Virus record (IMG/VR): IMGVR_UViG_2512047041_000005
Location: 1 to 51,583 of that record
Length of the DNA: 51,583 bases
From: a virus
Lineage: Duplodnaviria > Heunggongvirae > Uroviricota > Caudoviricetes
Direction: 5' to 3' (one strand)
Shown here: positions 17,437-24,094 of the stretch, piece by piece
How the letters are laid out: every line of letters starts with the position of its first letter
How positions within the stretch are numbered: the stretch's first letter is position 1
Notes under the pieces: generated by a model
The model's input: only the letters and a program-made list of their open reading frames with translations
What the model was told of the DNA's origin: nothing
Database searches by the model: none
Translations under genes and position numbers: made by a program

Positions 17437-18320
17437 CACACACTCCTCGTCAGTATTCTGGCGGCCATTGCACTTAATCCCGGAGACATGCGGTTGAATG
17501 CTGTGCCGGCGGCGTTAAGCTGCCCGGAAACGGTATCCAGAGCACCTGCAATATTTCTTTTGTCCACACCACTCAGCGCAGACTGTGCCTGCTGTACATA
17601 CGTGGCTGCTTCGCTGGCTGTTCTGGCCAGACTGATGGCATCGGGCATGGATTCAGAGAGTGCGTTAAACGCCGGAACACTTTTCCCCAGAGCCCCGGAG
17701 ATATTACCCAGTCCGCTCATCAGCCCCGGCACACGGGTCAGTGCGACAACGGGGTTATCCTTCATTTTCTGTGTCACCCGAACGGCGCTGATAGTGGTCT
17801 GGAGTACAGACTGCGCCTGTTTCGCATAGTTGACGCCGTTGCGGATGAACTGCGCCACCCCTGAAGGTGAAGGAATGGCACCGGAGACCGCCCCGACACC
17901 CGGGAGCTTCGTGCGTATTGCCGGTGGTTGCAGAGGATTTTTCGGGTCACCGGTGTATTCCCGGAGAGACACGGTGGCACTGACAGCCAGCACGTTGCCG
18001 GTACTGTCAGTCTGCTCGCTGGTTGCAGTCACATCGGTAATCACGAACCAGCCGCGATAGTCACCGTTGCCGAAGACCAGCGCCAGTGCCTGATGGGCTT
18101 TCATGGCTGTTCGCAGTCTCGCCAGCTCCACATCGGGTACACAATAATGCTGATGGAAAACCAGAGTTATCTGGATTTCGTCCAGCCTGTCGCCGACGAA
18201 CTGCAGGCCAGGCTTACCCCCGATGCGGGCATGCTCCGCATAATCGACGCCGAACGTGGCCTCGAAGCCGTCCCAGTAGGTAATCAGCTCAAACTCAATA
18301 TCACCCAGTACGGCAAACAT
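17436..18320 (-). CDS. Tail protein (P2 gpU-like N-terminus / Mu N-like)
   Basis: 294 aa immediately downstream of the tape measure gene. Confidence 0.6.
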   Translation of the reverse strand: MFAVLGDIEFELITYWDGFEATFGVDYAEHARIGGKPGLQFVGDRLDEIQITLVFHQHYCVPDVELARLRTAMKAHQALALVFGNGDYRGWFVITDVTATSEQTDSTGNVLAVSATVSLREYTGDPKNPLQPPAIRTKLPGVGAVSGAIPSPSGVAQFIRNGVNYAKQAQSVLQTTISAVRVTQKMKDNPVVALTRVPGLMSGLGNISGALGKSVPAFNALSESMPDAISLARTASEAATYVQQAQSALSGVDKRNIAGALDTVSGQLNAAGTAFNRMSPGLSAMAARILTRSV

Positions 18321-21271
18321 CAGCGGTACTCCTTACGTTGTTTCTGAGCCAGCAGACGCTCCAGCATTTTTTCCAGCTCATGCAGACTCATATTCAGGGC
18401 ACCAGTCAGTCCTGCAGGCGCTGTGGTTTCCCTGCCATTGAGGAAAAACTGAGGATTAAAGCTGACCTGGATACCACCAGACGTTCCACCGCCGGTTGCA
18501 GCTGCACCACGGCCTGAATATCCGGCAGCCAGGATTTCAGGCGAGGGGATACGGGGAACATCCGGTGTCATCTCATTTGCCAGACGTTGCCCTGGTAAAA
18601 TCGATGCCCGGGTGGAGAGCGGAATAGCGGGCATGGAAGACAAACTATTGATTACGGCTCCGATCGCATTTTTAGCAGACGACATAAACCCATTGATATC
18701 GGGCAACGGCATACTGAAGCGAACACCTGAAGTGTTATCTCGTATTTCTGGCCCCTGAATGCTCACGGGCATTCTGGGGAGCAGTTCACTGGCCATTCGC
18801 TGCCCGGCCAGAGCTGCAAGCGGAGTGGTCCGCTGCAGGCCAATGGCGGCCCCCTGCGCGATATTGTCACCAAAGCCCATAAACACGCGGCTCGGCGAAT
18901 GAATGCCCAGCTTTTCGCTGAACCAGCCACTGATGCTGTCACCCATTCCGGTTACACTGGATTTGAGCGACTCCCATTTGTTTTTGATACCGTTAATCAG
19001 ACCATCGACAAGATGGCCACCGAAGTCGGTAAACTTTGCCGGCAGATCAACACCAAGATATTTCAGCGCAACTGCAAAGGCTTTATAGAGCAGACCTGCC
19101 GGCGACCAGTTAATCAGCAGCTTACCAGTTCCCGCGATACCGCCGTTAAAGGCTTCCTGAATGTCAGCCCAGCACTGTTTAAACCAGCTACTGATGCTGT
19201 CACCCATTCCGGTTACACTGGATTTGAGCGACCCCCATTTGTTTTTGATACCGTTAATCAGACCGTCGATAAGATGGCCACCGAAGTCGGTGAACTTTGC
19301 CGGCAGAGCAACGCCGAAATATTTCAGCGCAGCCGCAAAGGCTTTATAGAGCAGGCCTGCCGGCGACCAGTTAATCAGCAACTTACCAATTCCCACAATG
19401 CCGCCGTTAAAGGCTTCCTGAATGTCTGCCCAGCGCTGTTTAAACCAGCCACTGACTGCCCCCCAGTTGCGGTAGATAAGGTAAGCTGCTGCCGCGACAG
19501 CGGTGATAACGAGACCGATGGGATTCATCATCAGCGCACGTCCAATCCAGAGAACAGCACGTCCGGCGAGCATAATTCCGCGAACCAGCCCCCCGGAGAG
19601 CACGCCACTCAGTGTTCTGGCTCCTCTGGCGACGGCGCTAAATCCGGTCACCAGCCAGCGGAGCTTACCGCCTTGCCCCAGTGCGAGCGACAGACGAAGC
19701 CAGTTGGCCCGAAGTAAAACAGCATTTTTCCAGACACTTACAAAGGGGGAAATAAGGAGATTCAGCCCCAGTTTGAGACCAACAGTCGCTATCTTAATCG
19801 CAAGGAGCGCACTGATGAGCTTAAAAGCCCCACTGACAAATTGCGGGTGAGTCGCTACCCAGTGTTTTGCCCCCTGAATGAGTGGAAGCAGTTCCTGAGT
19901 CAAAGAAATAAAAGATGGAGCTAATTGATCGCCCAGCGTAATTGCCAGATCGCGACTGCTGACCATAAGTGTTTTAGTGGCTTCAAGGGGAGATTTCAGC
20001 CGCTGATCATAAGCACTGGCAAGCAAATCGTTATCCGCAGCCCTGAGAGCACCGGCACGGATCTCTCGATATCTGTCCATGTTGGCCAGCATCGGGCGGA
20101 TAAATGCCATGACCTGCATATCCGCGAACATATCGCCCAGACCAAAGTTTTTCGCCAGAGCCTGAAGTGCCTCATCTCTTGCCGTATCATTCTTTATTTT
20201 CATGGCTGATTTGAAGCCGGCCAGCGCTTCGGGGCTTTTGGCATTGAGGTAACGTTCTATAACACTCAACATCCCTTCAATCGGAGAGATCCCCGCAGCT
20301 TTATAACTCGCAATAGATCCCTGCAAATCAATACCCAGATCAGCAAACTGTTTCTGAGTATCGCGGGCAAAAATTTTGGTAAGAAAGTTTTTAAAATTAT
20401 TGGCTGCTTCGTCGGTGGAACCTGCACCGATTTTTGCTATCTGGAGACTGGCCCCGATTTCAGCAACAGCCTCTTTTCCACTGGCAATACCCGCCATCAT
20501 TGGGGCCAGGGACTGCATCCACTTGACCTGATCCGGGATTTCAAATGACCCCTGGTCACCGGCATAAGCCATAATATTCTGAACGGCACCAAAATCTCTG
20601 GCCGCACCTTTCAGGGAGTTTTGCCAGACTGCGGCCACTTTTGCCCAGTCCTGAGCAGACGTGCGTGTTGCCGTTGCCGCGCGGGCAATATCCGGCATCA
20701 GAAAACCGATATCTGACACATTATCAATATTGTCGCTGATGAGTGAACCCACCGCCTCCTGCAGCTCATCCTGATACTGATTGTATTTAAGCGCCCAGCC
20801 TTTTATCTGTCCGGCAAGTGCATCCCGCGTTTTATTGTCATATTTTGCGGTGATCGACATATCAATCATTTTGTCCTGAAAAAACATGGACTGCTGAACG
20901 GCAGGGGAAACCGTATGATAAACAGTCTGAGCCATGCCATACGCTTCAATCCCCTGACCATACAGCGCCATGCGGTTAGCTTTCAGCGCATCACTGGTAG
21001 CGGATGCCGCTGACAGACGGCGCTGCTGGCGCTCAATTTGCTCCATGGTGCGGCTTACCCGCAGCAGCTCGCTGTTGAGATGCTGCATCCGGGAAGAACC
21101 CAGTTGACCATAACGTTCTGTTGCACGGGTTAAAGCGTTCTGACGTTCCTGCAGGCGGCGTGAGGTATCGCTCAGGGAATCAAGCGCACGGCGGGTACCG
21201 CTCATTGCAGAACGGAATGTGCTGCCAATCATCCCGCCGATAACAACGCCGACTGAAAACTGTCCCGACAT
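18320..21271 (-). CDS. Tail tape measure protein
   Basis: 983 aa, helical and Gly/Ala-rich; internal 87-aa tandem duplication. Confidence 0.85.
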   Translation of the reverse strand: MSGQFSVGVVIGGMIGSTFRSAMSGTRRALDSLSDTSRRLQERQNALTRATERYGQLGSSRMQHLNSELLRVSRTMEQIERQQRRLSAASATSDALKANRMALYGQGIEAYGMAQTVYHTVSPAVQQSMFFQDKMIDMSITAKYDNKTRDALAGQIKGWALKYNQYQDELQEAVGSLISDNIDNVSDIGFLMPDIARAATATRTSAQDWAKVAAVWQNSLKGAARDFGAVQNIMAYAGDQGSFEIPDQVKWMQSLAPMMAGIASGKEAVAEIGASLQIAKIGAGSTDEAANNFKNFLTKIFARDTQKQFADLGIDLQGSIASYKAAGISPIEGMLSVIERYLNAKSPEALAGFKSAMKIKNDTARDEALQALAKNFGLGDMFADMQVMAFIRPMLANMDRYREIRAGALRAADNDLLASAYDQRLKSPLEATKTLMVSSRDLAITLGDQLAPSFISLTQELLPLIQGAKHWVATHPQFVSGAFKLISALLAIKIATVGLKLGLNLLISPFVSVWKNAVLLRANWLRLSLALGQGGKLRWLVTGFSAVARGARTLSGVLSGGLVRGIMLAGRAVLWIGRALMMNPIGLVITAVAAAAYLIYRNWGAVSGWFKQRWADIQEAFNGGIVGIGKLLINWSPAGLLYKAFAAALKYFGVALPAKFTDFGGHLIDGLINGIKNKWGSLKSSVTGMGDSISSWFKQCWADIQEAFNGGIAGTGKLLINWSPAGLLYKAFAVALKYLGVDLPAKFTDFGGHLVDGLINGIKNKWESLKSSVTGMGDSISGWFSEKLGIHSPSRVFMGFGDNIAQGAAIGLQRTTPLAALAGQRMASELLPRMPVSIQGPEIRDNTSGVRFSMPLPDINGFMSSAKNAIGAVINSLSSMPAIPLSTRASILPGQRLANEMTPDVPRIPSPEILAAGYSGRGAAATGGGTSGGIQVSFNPQFFLNGRETTAPAGLTGALNMSLHELEKMLERLLAQKQRKEYR
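18890..19450. repeat. 261-bp tandem repeat (about 2.2 copies) inside the tape measure gene
   Basis: ctgatgctgtcacccattccggttacactggatttgagcga recurs with 261-bp period; in-frame 87-aa protein repeat. Confidence 0.8.
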
Positions 21272-21346
21272 AGTGGTTAACCTCCGGGGAAGGTGAAAAG
21301 ACGTGAGGGGATAACGCAGAACAGCCGCTACTGGCGGCTGTCTGTA

Positions 21347-21604
21347 CTATGATTTGTCGCCGTACTCGCTTTTGATTTGCTCTTCAGCCTGCTCCAGCCA
21401 CATCTCCAGATCGTCAGTATCGAGGGCATCAATCTCCCCCGGCTGAAACCGGAACCATCTCGCCAGCAGCCCCTGCGCCTGCGTCAGCGCCCTGGTTGCT
21501 CTCACCCATCCCCGTGATGAGCTGAAATCGTTTCTGTAACTGCAGGTAATCAGCCAGATCCATATTGTCGAGATCTTCCGGGAGAAGACCAGTACTGCGG
21601 GCAA
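21347..21604 (-). CDS. Chaperone frameshift extension (E'-like), +1/-2 frame
   Basis: Open in the +1 frame relative to the chaperone and extends past its stop; acidic helical tail ...DTDDLEMWLEQAEEQIKSEYGDKS. Confidence 0.5.
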   Translation of the reverse strand: MPAVLVFSRKISTIWIWLITCSYRNDFSSSRGWVRATRALTQAQGLLARWFRFQPGEIDALDTDDLEMWLEQAEEQIKSEYGDKS

Positions 21605-21764
21605 TCAGCGGTTCGTCCCAGTCTGCCGGGTTTTTGCTGATTTTGCGCACCTGCTTCAGGTCTTTTACCGTCAGGCGTTTCAGTTCAACCAGCTCAATTC
21701 TGGTACCTGCAGCAGTGGTGAAGGGATAAGACAATTTAAAAGTATCGGATGGGGTCTGTGACAT
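21429..21764 (-). CDS. Tail assembly chaperone (E/G-like)
   Basis: 111 aa directly upstream of the tape measure gene with an overlapping extension ORF. Confidence 0.7.
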   Translation of the reverse strand: MSQTPSDTFKLSYPFTTAAGTRIELVELKRLTVKDLKQVRKISKNPADWDEPLIARSTGLLPEDLDNMDLADYLQLQKRFQLITGMGESNQGADAGAGAAGEMVPVSAGGD

Positions 21765-21840
21765 GATTGTGCTCCTGTGTAAGTTCAGGGCAGTATGTCG
21801 GGAGAAGCGCGTGACGGATATTAAAGGAGATTAAGAAGAA

Positions 21841-21854
21841 GGGGCCGGAGCCCC
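21841..21854 (-). terminator. GC-rich hairpin GGGGCCGGAGCCCC between tube-proximal ORF and chaperone
   Basis: Perfect 5-bp stem with 4-nt loop followed on the minus strand by a T-rich tract. Confidence 0.3.
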
Positions 21855-21960
21855 TGTGATGTCAGCAAGTGCGAAACCCCTTGCAGTTACGCAGGAAAGC
21901 GATGAGAAGCGTCTTTCCCTCAGATTTGTCGGTGCCGGAGAACCAGTGGTCGGGAGGCTC

Positions 21961-22143
21961 CTATGCTTCAATCAAATCCTCCAGTTTGCGGGCCTTTGAA
22001 CGTGTGCAGTCAATCGGGTCATTGGTTTTACGGGTATTAAAAAGGGTTTCCACCCCCGGAATATCAAGGAGGGTAAACCACGTACCATTTGACATGCCCA
22101 GTGCCGCACATCGTCCTCCTTTATCCGTCAGTTCAACACTCAC
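21961..22143 (-). CDS. Small hypothetical protein
   Basis: 60-aa ORF starting 3 nt after the tube gene stop. Confidence 0.3.
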   Translation of the reverse strand: MSVELTDKGGRCAALGMSNGTWFTLLDIPGVETLFNTRKTNDPIDCTRSKARKLEDLIEA

Positions 22144-22145
22144 CG

Positions 22146-22667
22146 TCAGCCCCCGATATTGATACGGTAGTCAGTCAGTTGATCAACACCTCCGACCCGG
22201 AAGATGTTGGCCAGATAGTCCAGTTGCAGCAGCTCTTCACCATCCAGTACCTGTCTGATATACGTGCAGGTGAAGCTACTGGAGAACTCGGCGTTCTCGT
22301 GCTGTTTGAACGTCCCCAGCGGGTTCTTCTTGAACATAATCGTCAGGAAGGTGACCAGCGGGATTTCGTCAATCAGCCCCTGCGAGCTGTAGCGCTGGAC
22401 GCTGGAACGACACTGCAGTGCCAGCGACCTGTACGGGTTCGCGGCAGACAGCATCGCATCGCGGTAAAAGCTGTTCCATTTGATTTCGCCTTCCAGTTTG
22501 TCAAAACCAGCCGGGAGTTCCACCTTACCCACCATCCCCAGCGCCTTGTGTTCCTGCATAATCATGGAGACATCGGGGAGTTTAACTTCCTCAGCCCGTC
22601 CCAGCAGGTTAGTACCATCCAGATAGATGTTGGCATTCGTGATGCGGTTTATCTCAATCTTTGACAT
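22146..22667 (-). CDS. Tail tube protein
   Basis: 173 aa immediately downstream of the sheath gene. Confidence 0.8.
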   Translation of the reverse strand: MSKIEINRITNANIYLDGTNLLGRAEEVKLPDVSMIMQEHKALGMVGKVELPAGFDKLEGEIKWNSFYRDAMLSAANPYRSLALQCRSSVQRYSSQGLIDEIPLVTFLTIMFKKNPLGTFKQHENAEFSSSFTCTYIRQVLDGEELLQLDYLANIFRVGGVDQLTDYRINIGG

Positions 22668-24094
22668 CAGTTGCCCCCTTTCAGGGTTAACAGGTATTCC
22701 GAGGTGATCTCAGTCTCAAACGTCAGTCGCTCCAGCGGCGGTGGTGGCGTATATTTGTAGCTCAGCAACAGGTGCCCGGCGGCCAGCTCCGTCTCCGGAT
22801 TGCGGGCCGGATCAAACCAGCAACGGAAGCCCAGTACCGCACCATCACCAGTCATTTTGCGACCGTAGGCGTTGACCGACTCCGTCAGTGCATCAATCAG
22901 CGCCTGAGTAATCGGCATGTCGATGTACTGCTGGCTGAAATAACGAATGGACTCGTTGATCACATCACCGGTGCGGCGAACGTTCTCAAAGTTACGCATA
23001 TGGGTGACCGTTGGCCATGCTGCCGTCCGGTTACCCCACAGACGAAGGCCGCTGCCGTAACTGCTGAATACCGTGGTGATCCCCTGTTCGTTAAGCAGGT
23101 TCACCTCACTCTGCGGGTCATCAATCATCGCGGACAGCTGGCGCTCCACGCCGGTGATCCCCAGAATCTCCTGATTGGAGGATGACCACCAGTAGCCCTT
23201 GTCCAGATCGACTCTGGCACGCAGACCTGCTGCACGCTGGCTGAGCGGCTCCAGACGCTCTGTGTTTGTCACCGGGTCATATACCTTCACATGCGGATAG
23301 CACAGACGGACGCGGTCGGAGCTGGTATTGAAGTTGATGGTGCCTTCCGGGCCACGACCTGCCAGAGCCTGTGCAAAGGTGGTACCGACAGGCGCATCAA
23401 TGTAGGTTACCGCGCCCAGCTTCTCTGCCATGGCGATAAGCTCAACTGCGACACTCTTCTGGGTGCAGAACACCGGCGCAATCAGAATTTTGGCGAAATA
23501 GCCGTACAGGTTGAAGCTGTCGTTAAGCAGCTTCATGCCGGTTCGGTTTCCGGCGCTGTTCACCCCGCCGATGATGTCCGCCGCAGTCACCTTCGACGGG
23601 TCCGCGTACTCATAGCTCACCTTCACGCTGCCACCGGCCTCAATAGCCTTGCCCAGGTTCGTGAGCACACCCGCCTGCGCATCAACACGGTAGTCCGTGT
23701 TCGCCGTGTGGGTGGTGCTGCCTTCACTGTTTTTCACCACCACATTAGCGACAACCGGATGCGCCAGTCTGGCCTGCCCTGTCGATTTGTCAAAGGTAAC
23801 CACCTCATCCTCGATCGCCGTTTTATGTTTCGCCGGGTCGAGGACGTTAATGACCAGAACGGTACCTGCACCATGGTCATAAATCGCATCCAGCGCCTGC
23901 GGAATGGTAAAGCCGGTGAACTGGCTGCCAAATGCCGCTGCGTCTTTCTCAGACAGGCACTGTACCAGCGTATTGACATCCCCCATCGGGGCGGTACCAA
24001 TCAGGCCAATAACGGCAGATTTCACCGTTTTAACCGGGCGGGCACCGTTTTCCACCTCAATGGTTTCGGGACCATGCAGATAGTTAGCTGCCAT
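22667..24094 (-). CDS. Contractile tail sheath protein
   Basis: 475 aa, Mu L / P2 FI-like. Confidence 0.85.
   Translation of the reverse strand: MAANYLHGPETIEVENGARPVKTVKSAVIGLIGTAPMGDVNTLVQCLSEKDAAAFGSQFTGFTIPQALDAIYDHGAGTVLVINVLDPAKHKTAIEDEVVTFDKSTGQARLAHPVVANVVVKNSEGSTTHTANTDYRVDAQAGVLTNLGKAIEAGGSVKVSYEYADPSKVTAADIIGGVNSAGNRTGMKLLNDSFNLYGYFAKILIAPVFCTQKSVAVELIAMAEKLGAVTYIDAPVGTTFAQALAGRGPEGTINFNTSSDRVRLCYPHVKVYDPVTNTERLEPLSQRAAGLRARVDLDKGYWWSSSNQEILGITGVERQLSAMIDDPQSEVNLLNEQGITTVFSSYGSGLRLWGNRTAAWPTVTHMRNFENVRRTGDVINESIRYFSQQYIDMPITQALIDALTESVNAYGRKMTGDGAVLGFRCWFDPARNPETELAAGHLLLSYKYTPPPPLERLTFETEITSEYLLTLKGGN

Follow-up and report, generated by a model that had tools for sequence, protein, structure and literature searches.

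The 51,583-nt stretch of DNA analysed here (IMG/VR virus record IMGVR_UViG_2512047041_000005, positions 1 to 51,583, hereafter the window) carries a minus-strand contractile-tail module in which genes for the sheath (22667-24094) and the tube are followed by a small open reading frame (ORF), a tail assembly chaperone, a second ORF overlapping the chaperone, and the tape measure protein. Our subject is the overlapping pair and the means by which its second member, the extension, could be translated. At the DNA level the window and Escherichia phage PhiKM, classified in Bcepmuvirus, share 99.5% identity, and in that isolated phage the chaperone/extension arrangement is intact and the region identical. 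The chaperone matches Pfam PF10109 (Phage_TAC_7, 'Phage tail assembly chaperone proteins, E, or 41 or 14', for P2 gpE, Mu gp41 and gp14) over residues 8-81 with E=5.5e-21 and 74.8 bits, well above the gathering cut-off of 25. This match, and a gene order of sheath-tube-chaperone-tape measure that puts the pair between tube and tape measure as in other members of the class, bear out the identification of a tail-assembly-chaperone gene pair in an earlier note made from the window's letters. The feature belongs to the conserved tail-chaperone frameshift class (Xu, Hendrix & Duda 2004) of gpE/gpE+E' and lambda G/GT type, here in a BcepMu-like E. coli prophage.

Minus-strand codon starts, taken modulo 3, are 2 for the chaperone and 1 for the extension, which places the extension (21347-21604) in the +1 (equivalently -2) frame relative to the chaperone (21429-21764). 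Coordinates and codon phase therefore agree with the earlier note that the frame is not -1. The chaperone mRNA ends GUU UCA GCC GGG GGA GAU UGA, its last five codons exactly as that note had read them. The first 26 codons of the extension ORF as mechanically listed coincide with the conserved chaperone domain, and their translation is not expected; chaperone residues beyond ~85 are of low complexity, and frame-0 selection is absent there.

To place the pair among its relatives, we combined four clades into a set of 128 loci with 97 unique sequences: the close relatives in Enterobacterales, loci of ARWFRF type (~40 species), a BcepMu clade and a Pseudomonas clade. Variation along the gene was read from 59 unique close relatives taken from IMG/VR. 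The species-level set came from a scan of one genome per species with a back-translated pattern of the motif of E', the P2 protein domain that the extension resembles; it returned 42 loci from ~40 species of Enterobacterales and Burkholderiales, 40 of which had enough upstream sequence for the frame to be evaluated. The scan is biased towards ARWFRF-type E', and the BcepMu and Pseudomonas clades were therefore added by separate scans.

The E'-like ORF lay in the +1 frame in 40/40 evaluable loci, from ~40 bacterial species. The frame is thus conserved in homologues, where its absence, together with that of a fusion product, had been named in the earlier note as grounds for giving up the proposal. 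The same arrangement recurs in BcepMu, a Ralstonia phage, a Salmonella prophage and Pseudomonas phage Komp_PAO1_1, a recurrence that, judged from the sequences compared, is far beyond chance. No start codon in the +1 frame is conserved across the clades compared, and the pair accordingly shows a second overlapping, conserved ORF without a conserved start of its own, as chaperone pairs do. Recoding into the +1 frame is the most likely route to expression of the extension.

Variation among the 59 close relatives marked out the frame under selection along the gene. Up to gene position ~255 the variability is at third positions of frame 0; past it, at third positions of the +1 frame. In the 48 nt directly ahead of the chaperone stop (gene positions 286-333), a stretch that takes in the GGGGG run described below, 13/16 of the +1 third positions are variable and only 1/16 of the frame-0 third positions, indicating that the ribosomes relevant to selection are already in the +1 frame there. 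Individual changes follow the same rule: UUC CGG replaced by UUU AGA preserves +1 Phe-Arg while creating a frame-0 UAG, and gene position 295 takes all four bases, the +1 reading remaining Gly throughout as frame 0 becomes Ala, Pro, Thr or Ser. Frame-0 stops of relatives occur at at least five different positions, every one downstream of a UUU_C tetranucleotide at chaperone residue Phe80. One such stop, a UAG in place of CAG at codon 91, leaves the +1 amino acid unchanged; records of the resulting 90-aa chaperone cover 914 contigs. Shortly after Phe80, the bases UGG (21506-21508, minus strand) encode a near-invariant +1-frame Trp, found 2-6 codons past the UUC, whose bases read in frame 0 as Met, Leu or Val followed by Gly, Asp, Ala or Val; this pattern points to +1-frame constraint. 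As judged from these substitutions, the +1 frame is under strong purifying selection across ~100 relatives.

That result makes it scarcely credible that the overlap is a decaying remnant whose extension goes unexpressed in this prophage. Some decay has occurred in this copy, since the adjacent small ORF carries a nonsense mutation, but selection on the +1 frame is strong and the region is unaltered in PhiKM. The small ORF in question is a hypothetical gene of 93 codons between tube and chaperone (21862-22143, minus strand), in which TGG has become TAG at 21961-21963 through an A at 21962. It is unbroken in phage PhiKM and in E. coli 503829, and the identical copy in E. coli AR_0013 is annotated by the Prokaryotic Genome Annotation Pipeline (PGAP) as a pseudogene with an internal stop.

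The product of the +1 frame resembles the E' part of P2 gpE+E'. Aligned with P2 E' by hhalign, the family profile gave E=5.9e-5 over 35 columns, and 10/20 aligned family members matched PF06528 (Phage_P2_GpE) at E<=0.01. The window's +1 peptide alone matched PF06528 weakly, at 14.7 bits (E=0.022), below the 23-bit cut-off. PGAP labels the same ORF in a degraded copy a 'GpE family phage tail protein'. A sequence search of the PDB found no solved relative. The E' homology begins ~14 residues upstream of a GGGGG run close to the chaperone stop, and the run itself encodes the Gly of the QP[G/S]EI motif.

The earlier note had placed the shift at this run, two codons before the UGA, proposing a -2 slip and citing phage Mu as the known example in this gene pair. 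The precedent is sound: a GenBank note documents a verified -2 slip on CGG_GGG_C in Mu, in the same Pfam family. The window has a run of at least five G in the zero frame that permits GGN to re-pair as GGG two bases back (GCC GGG GGA, 21443-21435), so that tRNA-Gly could move from GGA to GGG, and in window-type sequences the run precedes the frame-0 stop. A -2 slip there would give ...VSAGG-EIDALD..., and a +1 slip on the same run ...SAG-EID.... However, the switch of selection from frame 0 to +1 falls ~70 nt upstream of the run, and the run is missing or out of reach in most relatives. It is absent in 30/40 species loci, where the motif is Pro-Ser-Glu (CCG AGU GAG), lies beyond the frame-0 stop in 8 and is usable in 2; among all unique sequences the -2 site is usable in 14/97. 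A large clade of relatives has a frame-0 UAG seven codons ahead of the run, and 90-aa and 104-aa chaperone variants are common. Relatives carry CCG AGU GAG, CCC AGU GAG or CCU/CCA GGG GAG at the corresponding codons, and the first G of the run varies between G, T and A as the synonymous third base of the +1 proline codon. Two features of the Mu system are accordingly lacking in the window: a run that is conserved and reachable in frame 0 among homologues, and constraint on the new frame that starts at the run. Taken together, the onset of selection, the moving frame-0 stop, the absence of the run and the E' homology mean that a -2 slip at the run would drop the best-conserved half of E' (LLARWFRFQP), which the ...SAGG-EIDALD... 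product predicted in the earlier note would lose. We regard a shift on GGGGG as very improbable; by its variation among relatives, the run reads as plain Pro-Gly-Glu codons of the E' domain and not as a conserved shift site. The replacement CCGGGGGAG to CCAGGAGAG disrupts it and is synonymous in the +1 frame. A second run, the G4 of GCA_GGG_GCU (gene positions 292-295), was rejected as a shift site: its fourth G, a +1 third position, varies between G, C, A and T.

Where, then, could a shift common to all relatives occur? The nearest +1-frame stop on the 5' side and the nearest frame-0 stop on the 3' side bound any shared site, and over the 97 unique sequences they confine it to codons -3 to +8 around Phe80. 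Stops of the +1 frame are found in relatives at gene positions 209-211 or four codons ahead of the UUC, the latter a UGA in the Burkholderiales and Pseudomonas clades that sets the lower bound; the upper is set by a Hydrogenophaga prophage (L127) with a frame-0 stop 8 codons past Phe80. We then listed each codon in the interval whose tRNA re-pairs cognately at +1 or -2. The UUU_C at Phe80, ~90 nt upstream of the G-run, is in frame in 97/97 sequences and is the sole cognate re-pairing site common to all; the next best candidate is present in 35/97. It provides the slippery sequence within the overlap that is characteristic of chaperone pairs.

Codon usage at the site is distinctive. Phe80 is TTT in 40/40 species loci, including those of ~61-64% GC where TTC predominates, and other Phe codons of the gene mix TTT and TTC. 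The next codon is Gln, Leu or Arg, its first base always C, and the rare codon CGA precedes UUU_C in 35/40 species loci. Gene positions 235-243 (CGAUUUCAG) are essentially invariant in 58 close relatives, with adjacent third positions varying freely. In the BcepMu clade the boundary reads [U/G]C[C/U]_UUU_CG[C/U], including UCC/GCC_UUU_CGC. A summary of prfB-based assays in PMC10274946 ranks UUU with the P-site codons most prone to +1 slippage. On these grounds we consider it probable that low-level +1 slippage of tRNA-Phe at UUU_C yields a 138-aa fusion resembling gpE+E'.

Several observations weigh against this assignment. The sequences compared are phylogenetically related, and the counts overstate their independence. 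Because Phe80 never varies as a residue of the domain, its conservation is partly a matter of the protein, and the signals apparent at the nucleotide level are limited to the choice of TTT and the C that follows. CAG, which would occupy the A site, is a common codon in E. coli, and near UUU_C there is neither an A-site stop codon nor a correctly spaced Shine-Dalgarno-like element; the upstream UUACAGAAACGA is not Shine-Dalgarno-like and, with CAG in the A site, the site differs from the prfB type on both counts. No conserved RNA structure that would stimulate a shift was found with RNAalifold in 12 diverse relatives. Between UUU_C and the +1 Trp, moreover, frame 0 still looks the more constrained, with fourfold variation at an ACN codon. 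Such constraint would be expected if the short product dominates, and it gives no positive sign of +1 reading from the UUU itself.

The RNAalifold consensus contained a single 7-bp long-range pairing (-4.9 kcal/mol, no covariation) of CGAUUUC (21524-21530) with GAGAUUG (21430-21436, minus strand), which lies ~90 nt downstream and directly 3' of the G-run. Across the 12 relatives, one-sided changes are tolerated and no compensatory change occurs; because both segments are constrained by coding, the pairing is probably coincidental. The window also has a local hairpin immediately 3' of UUU_C, which is neither significant (z = -1.5) nor conserved.

The interval would also accommodate a shift elsewhere between Phe80 and the +1 Trp, at sites differing by clade; in the window the candidate is GGG_A (21512-21509), on which tRNA-Gly would re-pair at +1. 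GGG_N is a classical +1-prone site (sufD-type suppression). Close Enterobacterales relatives nearly all keep the GGG of gene positions 253-255, the next base is a synonymous +1 third position, and frame 0 looks constrained through position 252. Yet GGG_N is absent at this point in Photorhabdus (GGA UUG), in Salmonella-like sequences (AGC GUG) and in the Ralstonia/Burkholderiales, BcepMu and Pseudomonas clades, and is present in ~54/97 sequences against 97/97 for UUU_C. The site would have to relocate repeatedly, and we judge this explanation unlikely.

Frameshifting could be dispensed with altogether if E' were translated alone from an internal start, for example the GUG at 21505-21503, which is preceded by GGGGAUGG. 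Two annotations are of this kind: PGAP records a 52-aa 'GpE family phage tail protein' (WP_001202894.1), and the BcepMu record begins gp42 at an AUG that is conserved within the BcepMu clade. In relatives, however, the GUG codon is GCA, AUC, AUU, CUA or GUA, no start is conserved across clades, and all candidate starts lie downstream of the near-invariant +1 Trp. In P2 and lambda, moreover, the corresponding domain (homologous or analogous) functions as a fusion. Independent initiation therefore appears quite improbable.

We also considered natural single-ORF fusions (138-144 aa; P0001-P0009, P0014, P0020 and others in our protein set) as evidence of the junction and set them aside as sequencing or assembly errors, their indels falling at differing homopolymers (G5, GGGG and others), some with two compensating indels. 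Public collections contain many such 'fused' or doubly frameshifted chaperones (P0001-P0009, P0014, P0020, P0023, P0031) with indels at the homopolymers G5 and G4. Error-prone assembly is the probable source of these records, which might be taken for natural fusions.

The mechanism that we propose for +1 slippage at UUU_C rests, in all its steps, on comparative sequence analysis. Most ribosomes would complete the 111-aa chaperone, and a small fraction would shift +1 at CGA_UUU_C (21530-21524). There the P-site tRNA-Phe (anticodon GAA) would quit UUU and re-pair with the overlapping UUC, exchanging a G:U wobble for a G:C pair, and reading would resume at AGC UCA UCA CGG GGA UGG and run on to the UAG. 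The predicted fusion of 138 aa would comprise chaperone residues 1-80, a short Ser-rich linker and the E'-like domain, with a junction ...QKRF-SSSRGW... (junction peptide ...LQLQKRFSSSRGW). We speculate that the conserved CGA may weaken E-site pairing. As no stimulator was found, the shift is presumably inefficient, and a low efficiency would fit the G:GT ratio in lambda, which is roughly 30:1. If it acted like lambda GT and P2 E+E', the fusion would connect the polymerising tube with the chaperone bound to the tape measure.

Comparison with P2 supports the placement of the boundary. P2 gpE, like the window protein, is a PF10109 chaperone encoded between tube (FII) and tape-measure (T) genes, followed by a PF06528-like E', with the shift, in the window the proposed one, on a UUU (Phe) codon at the C-terminal limit of the chaperone domain. 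P2 gpE+E' has 142 aa (143 codons including the stop) against 138 aa for the predicted fusion; the distance from the Phe to the PxE motif is ~33 residues in P2 and ~30 in the window; the E' motifs read WPPSEL and FQPGEI, respectively; and both proteins have a conserved C-terminal Trp. The two differ in the shift itself. P2 uses a -1 frameshift at G_GUU_UUU_UG, a U6 heptamer, whereas the window's E' lies in the +1 frame with only UUU_C available. The Phe codons also sit ~4 profile positions apart (74 vs 78 by Pfam end-points), and for this reason we dropped the idea that they are the same codon. Two further loci are of note here. A Trinickia metagenome-assembled genome (L100) has ACG UUU UUU CAA, a U6C run resembling the slippery run of P2, and even so its E' reads in +1; in Pasteurella phage AFS-2018a (L088), E' is in the -1 frame, as in P2. 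Both frame solutions thus coexist within the family.

Like the window, Mu has this gene pair (gp41/gp41-42) in a contractile-tail phage, with the extension read in +1/-2 and, soon after the junction in the new frame, a Trp-[Leu/Val]-Arg; the Mu protein matches PF10109 weakly. The G5 of Mu is the shift site at the domain boundary, whereas that of the window lies 70 nt inside new-frame coding and is unconserved, and the Mu extension is without an E'-like motif. The lambda G/GT pair is likewise encoded between the major tail and tape-measure genes and gives two products with a common N-terminus, for which a low long:short ratio is expected in the window as well; it differs in shifting -1 on G_GGA_AAG and has no sequence similarity to the window.

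For the P-site event itself, the closest parallels are viral systems of eukaryotes. Influenza A PA-X (UCC_UUU_CGU, an established +1 site) and the Amalgaviridae have the same proposed step, tRNA-Phe moving from UUU to UUC, and the UUU followed by C that it needs is present in the window at 21527-21524. PA-X likewise has no evident stimulatory structure and low efficiency. It differs in using eukaryotic ribosomes and in placing the rare CGU in the A site, where the window has the common CAG with CGA preceding; a slow CGN in the A site (CGC, CGU or CGG) was seen only in BcepMu, Pseudomonas and Hydrogenophaga relatives. By this analogy the resemblance would be one of mechanism only.

BcepMu (AY539836), a true relative, encodes a PF10109 chaperone as gp41 and a +1-frame E'-like ORF as gp42. 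In its record, gp42/gp43 are designated the slippage pair of lambda G/T type (L085, 4603-5364). The presence of QPSEIAELD in gp42 and of UCC_UUU_CGC at the boundary indicates instead that the chaperone pair is probably gp41/gp42, joined by a +1 shift.

Across the PF10109 family, these comparisons lead us to favour, by a modest degree, three recoding solutions at one domain boundary: -1 on U6G in P2, -2 on G5 in Mu, and an unstimulated +1 on (CGA_)UUU_C in BcepMu-like phages and prophages of Enterobacterales, Burkholderiales and Pseudomonas. The last would be a bacterial counterpart of the PA-X and amalgavirus UUU_C, unannotated or mis-annotated in GenBank and RefSeq, and its near-fixed CGA in the E site may be a clade-specific enhancer. 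If this is correct, a simple, structure-free +1 site joins the bacterial recoding repertoire, and a single chaperone family has switched among -1, -2 and +1 solutions. Tail-chaperone frameshifting in general is already well known, +1 cases included: actinobacteriophage annotations include hundreds of forward (+1) chaperone frameshifts, and reviews mention such cases. A literature search of incomplete coverage found no description of a +1 shift for BcepMu-like chaperones, and the UUU_C solution for these phages appears undescribed.

The consequences for annotation are practical. Of 5,426 complete E. coli genomes, 636 contain the prophage family, and PGAP annotation of the pair in them stops at a lone 'phage tail assembly protein'. 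In some PGAP/RefSeq copies a 'GpE family' ORF is listed separately, and none joins the two into the 138-aa fusion. Our reading corrects this omission in E. coli prophages and the apparently wrong slippage pair marked in BcepMu. Frameshift predictors that search near the zero-frame stop would choose the G-run and return the wrong protein. One database entry calls for separate comment: an 8,241-nt contig assigned to 'Arthrobacter sp. GMC3' (NZ_PJIO01000028.1; L128) carries an E. coli-type chaperone locus with ~99% protein identity, most likely enterobacterial contamination in an actinobacterial assembly.

Table 1. Positions in the window of the chaperone pair, its candidate recoding elements and the neighbouring tail genes.
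Feature	Position	Strand	Details
Frame-0 tail assembly chaperone ORF	21429..21764	-	111 aa; stop UGA 21431-21429
+1-frame ORF as mechanically listed, TTG start	21347..21604	-	85 aa; overlaps chaperone
Proposed +1 shift site CGA_UUU_C	21524..21530	-	CGA 21530-21528, UUU (Phe80) 21527-21525, C 21524
+1-frame coding segment of predicted fusion	21347..21526	-	58 aa after Phe80: SSSRGWVRATRALTQAQGLLARWFRFQPGEIDALDTDDLEMWLEQAEEQIKSEYGDKS; stop UAG 21349-21347
E'-like core, extension residues 15-49	21380..21484	-	Homologous to P2 E' / Pfam PF06528 region
GGGGG run	21440..21436	-	+1 codons CCG GGG GAG (Pro-Gly-Glu of QP[GS]EI motif)
Tail tube gene, upstream neighbour	22146..22667	-	Pfam Phage_tube
Tape measure protein gene, downstream neighbour	18320..21271	-	

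Two hairpins flank the pair. Just upstream of the chaperone, a terminator-like hairpin at 21840-21855 (minus strand; -12.8 kcal/mol, z = -3.5) consists of AGGGGCUCCGGCCCCU followed by UCUUCUU and could be a transcriptional attenuation site within the tail operon. A strong hairpin at 21317-21344 (minus strand; CAGACAGCCGC-CAGUA-GCGGCUGUUCUG; -18.1 kcal/mol, z = -4.1) begins 3 nt past the E' stop, ahead of the tape-measure gene, and its stem sequence is kept in most relatives despite diverged flanks. Within the tape-measure gene, a 261-bp tandem duplication occupies 18921-19455 (2.0 copies, 92% identical). The encoded protein has 983 aa, compared with genes of 2466 nt (~821 aa) in two relatives with complete coordinates, and the longer tape measure may imply a longer tail.

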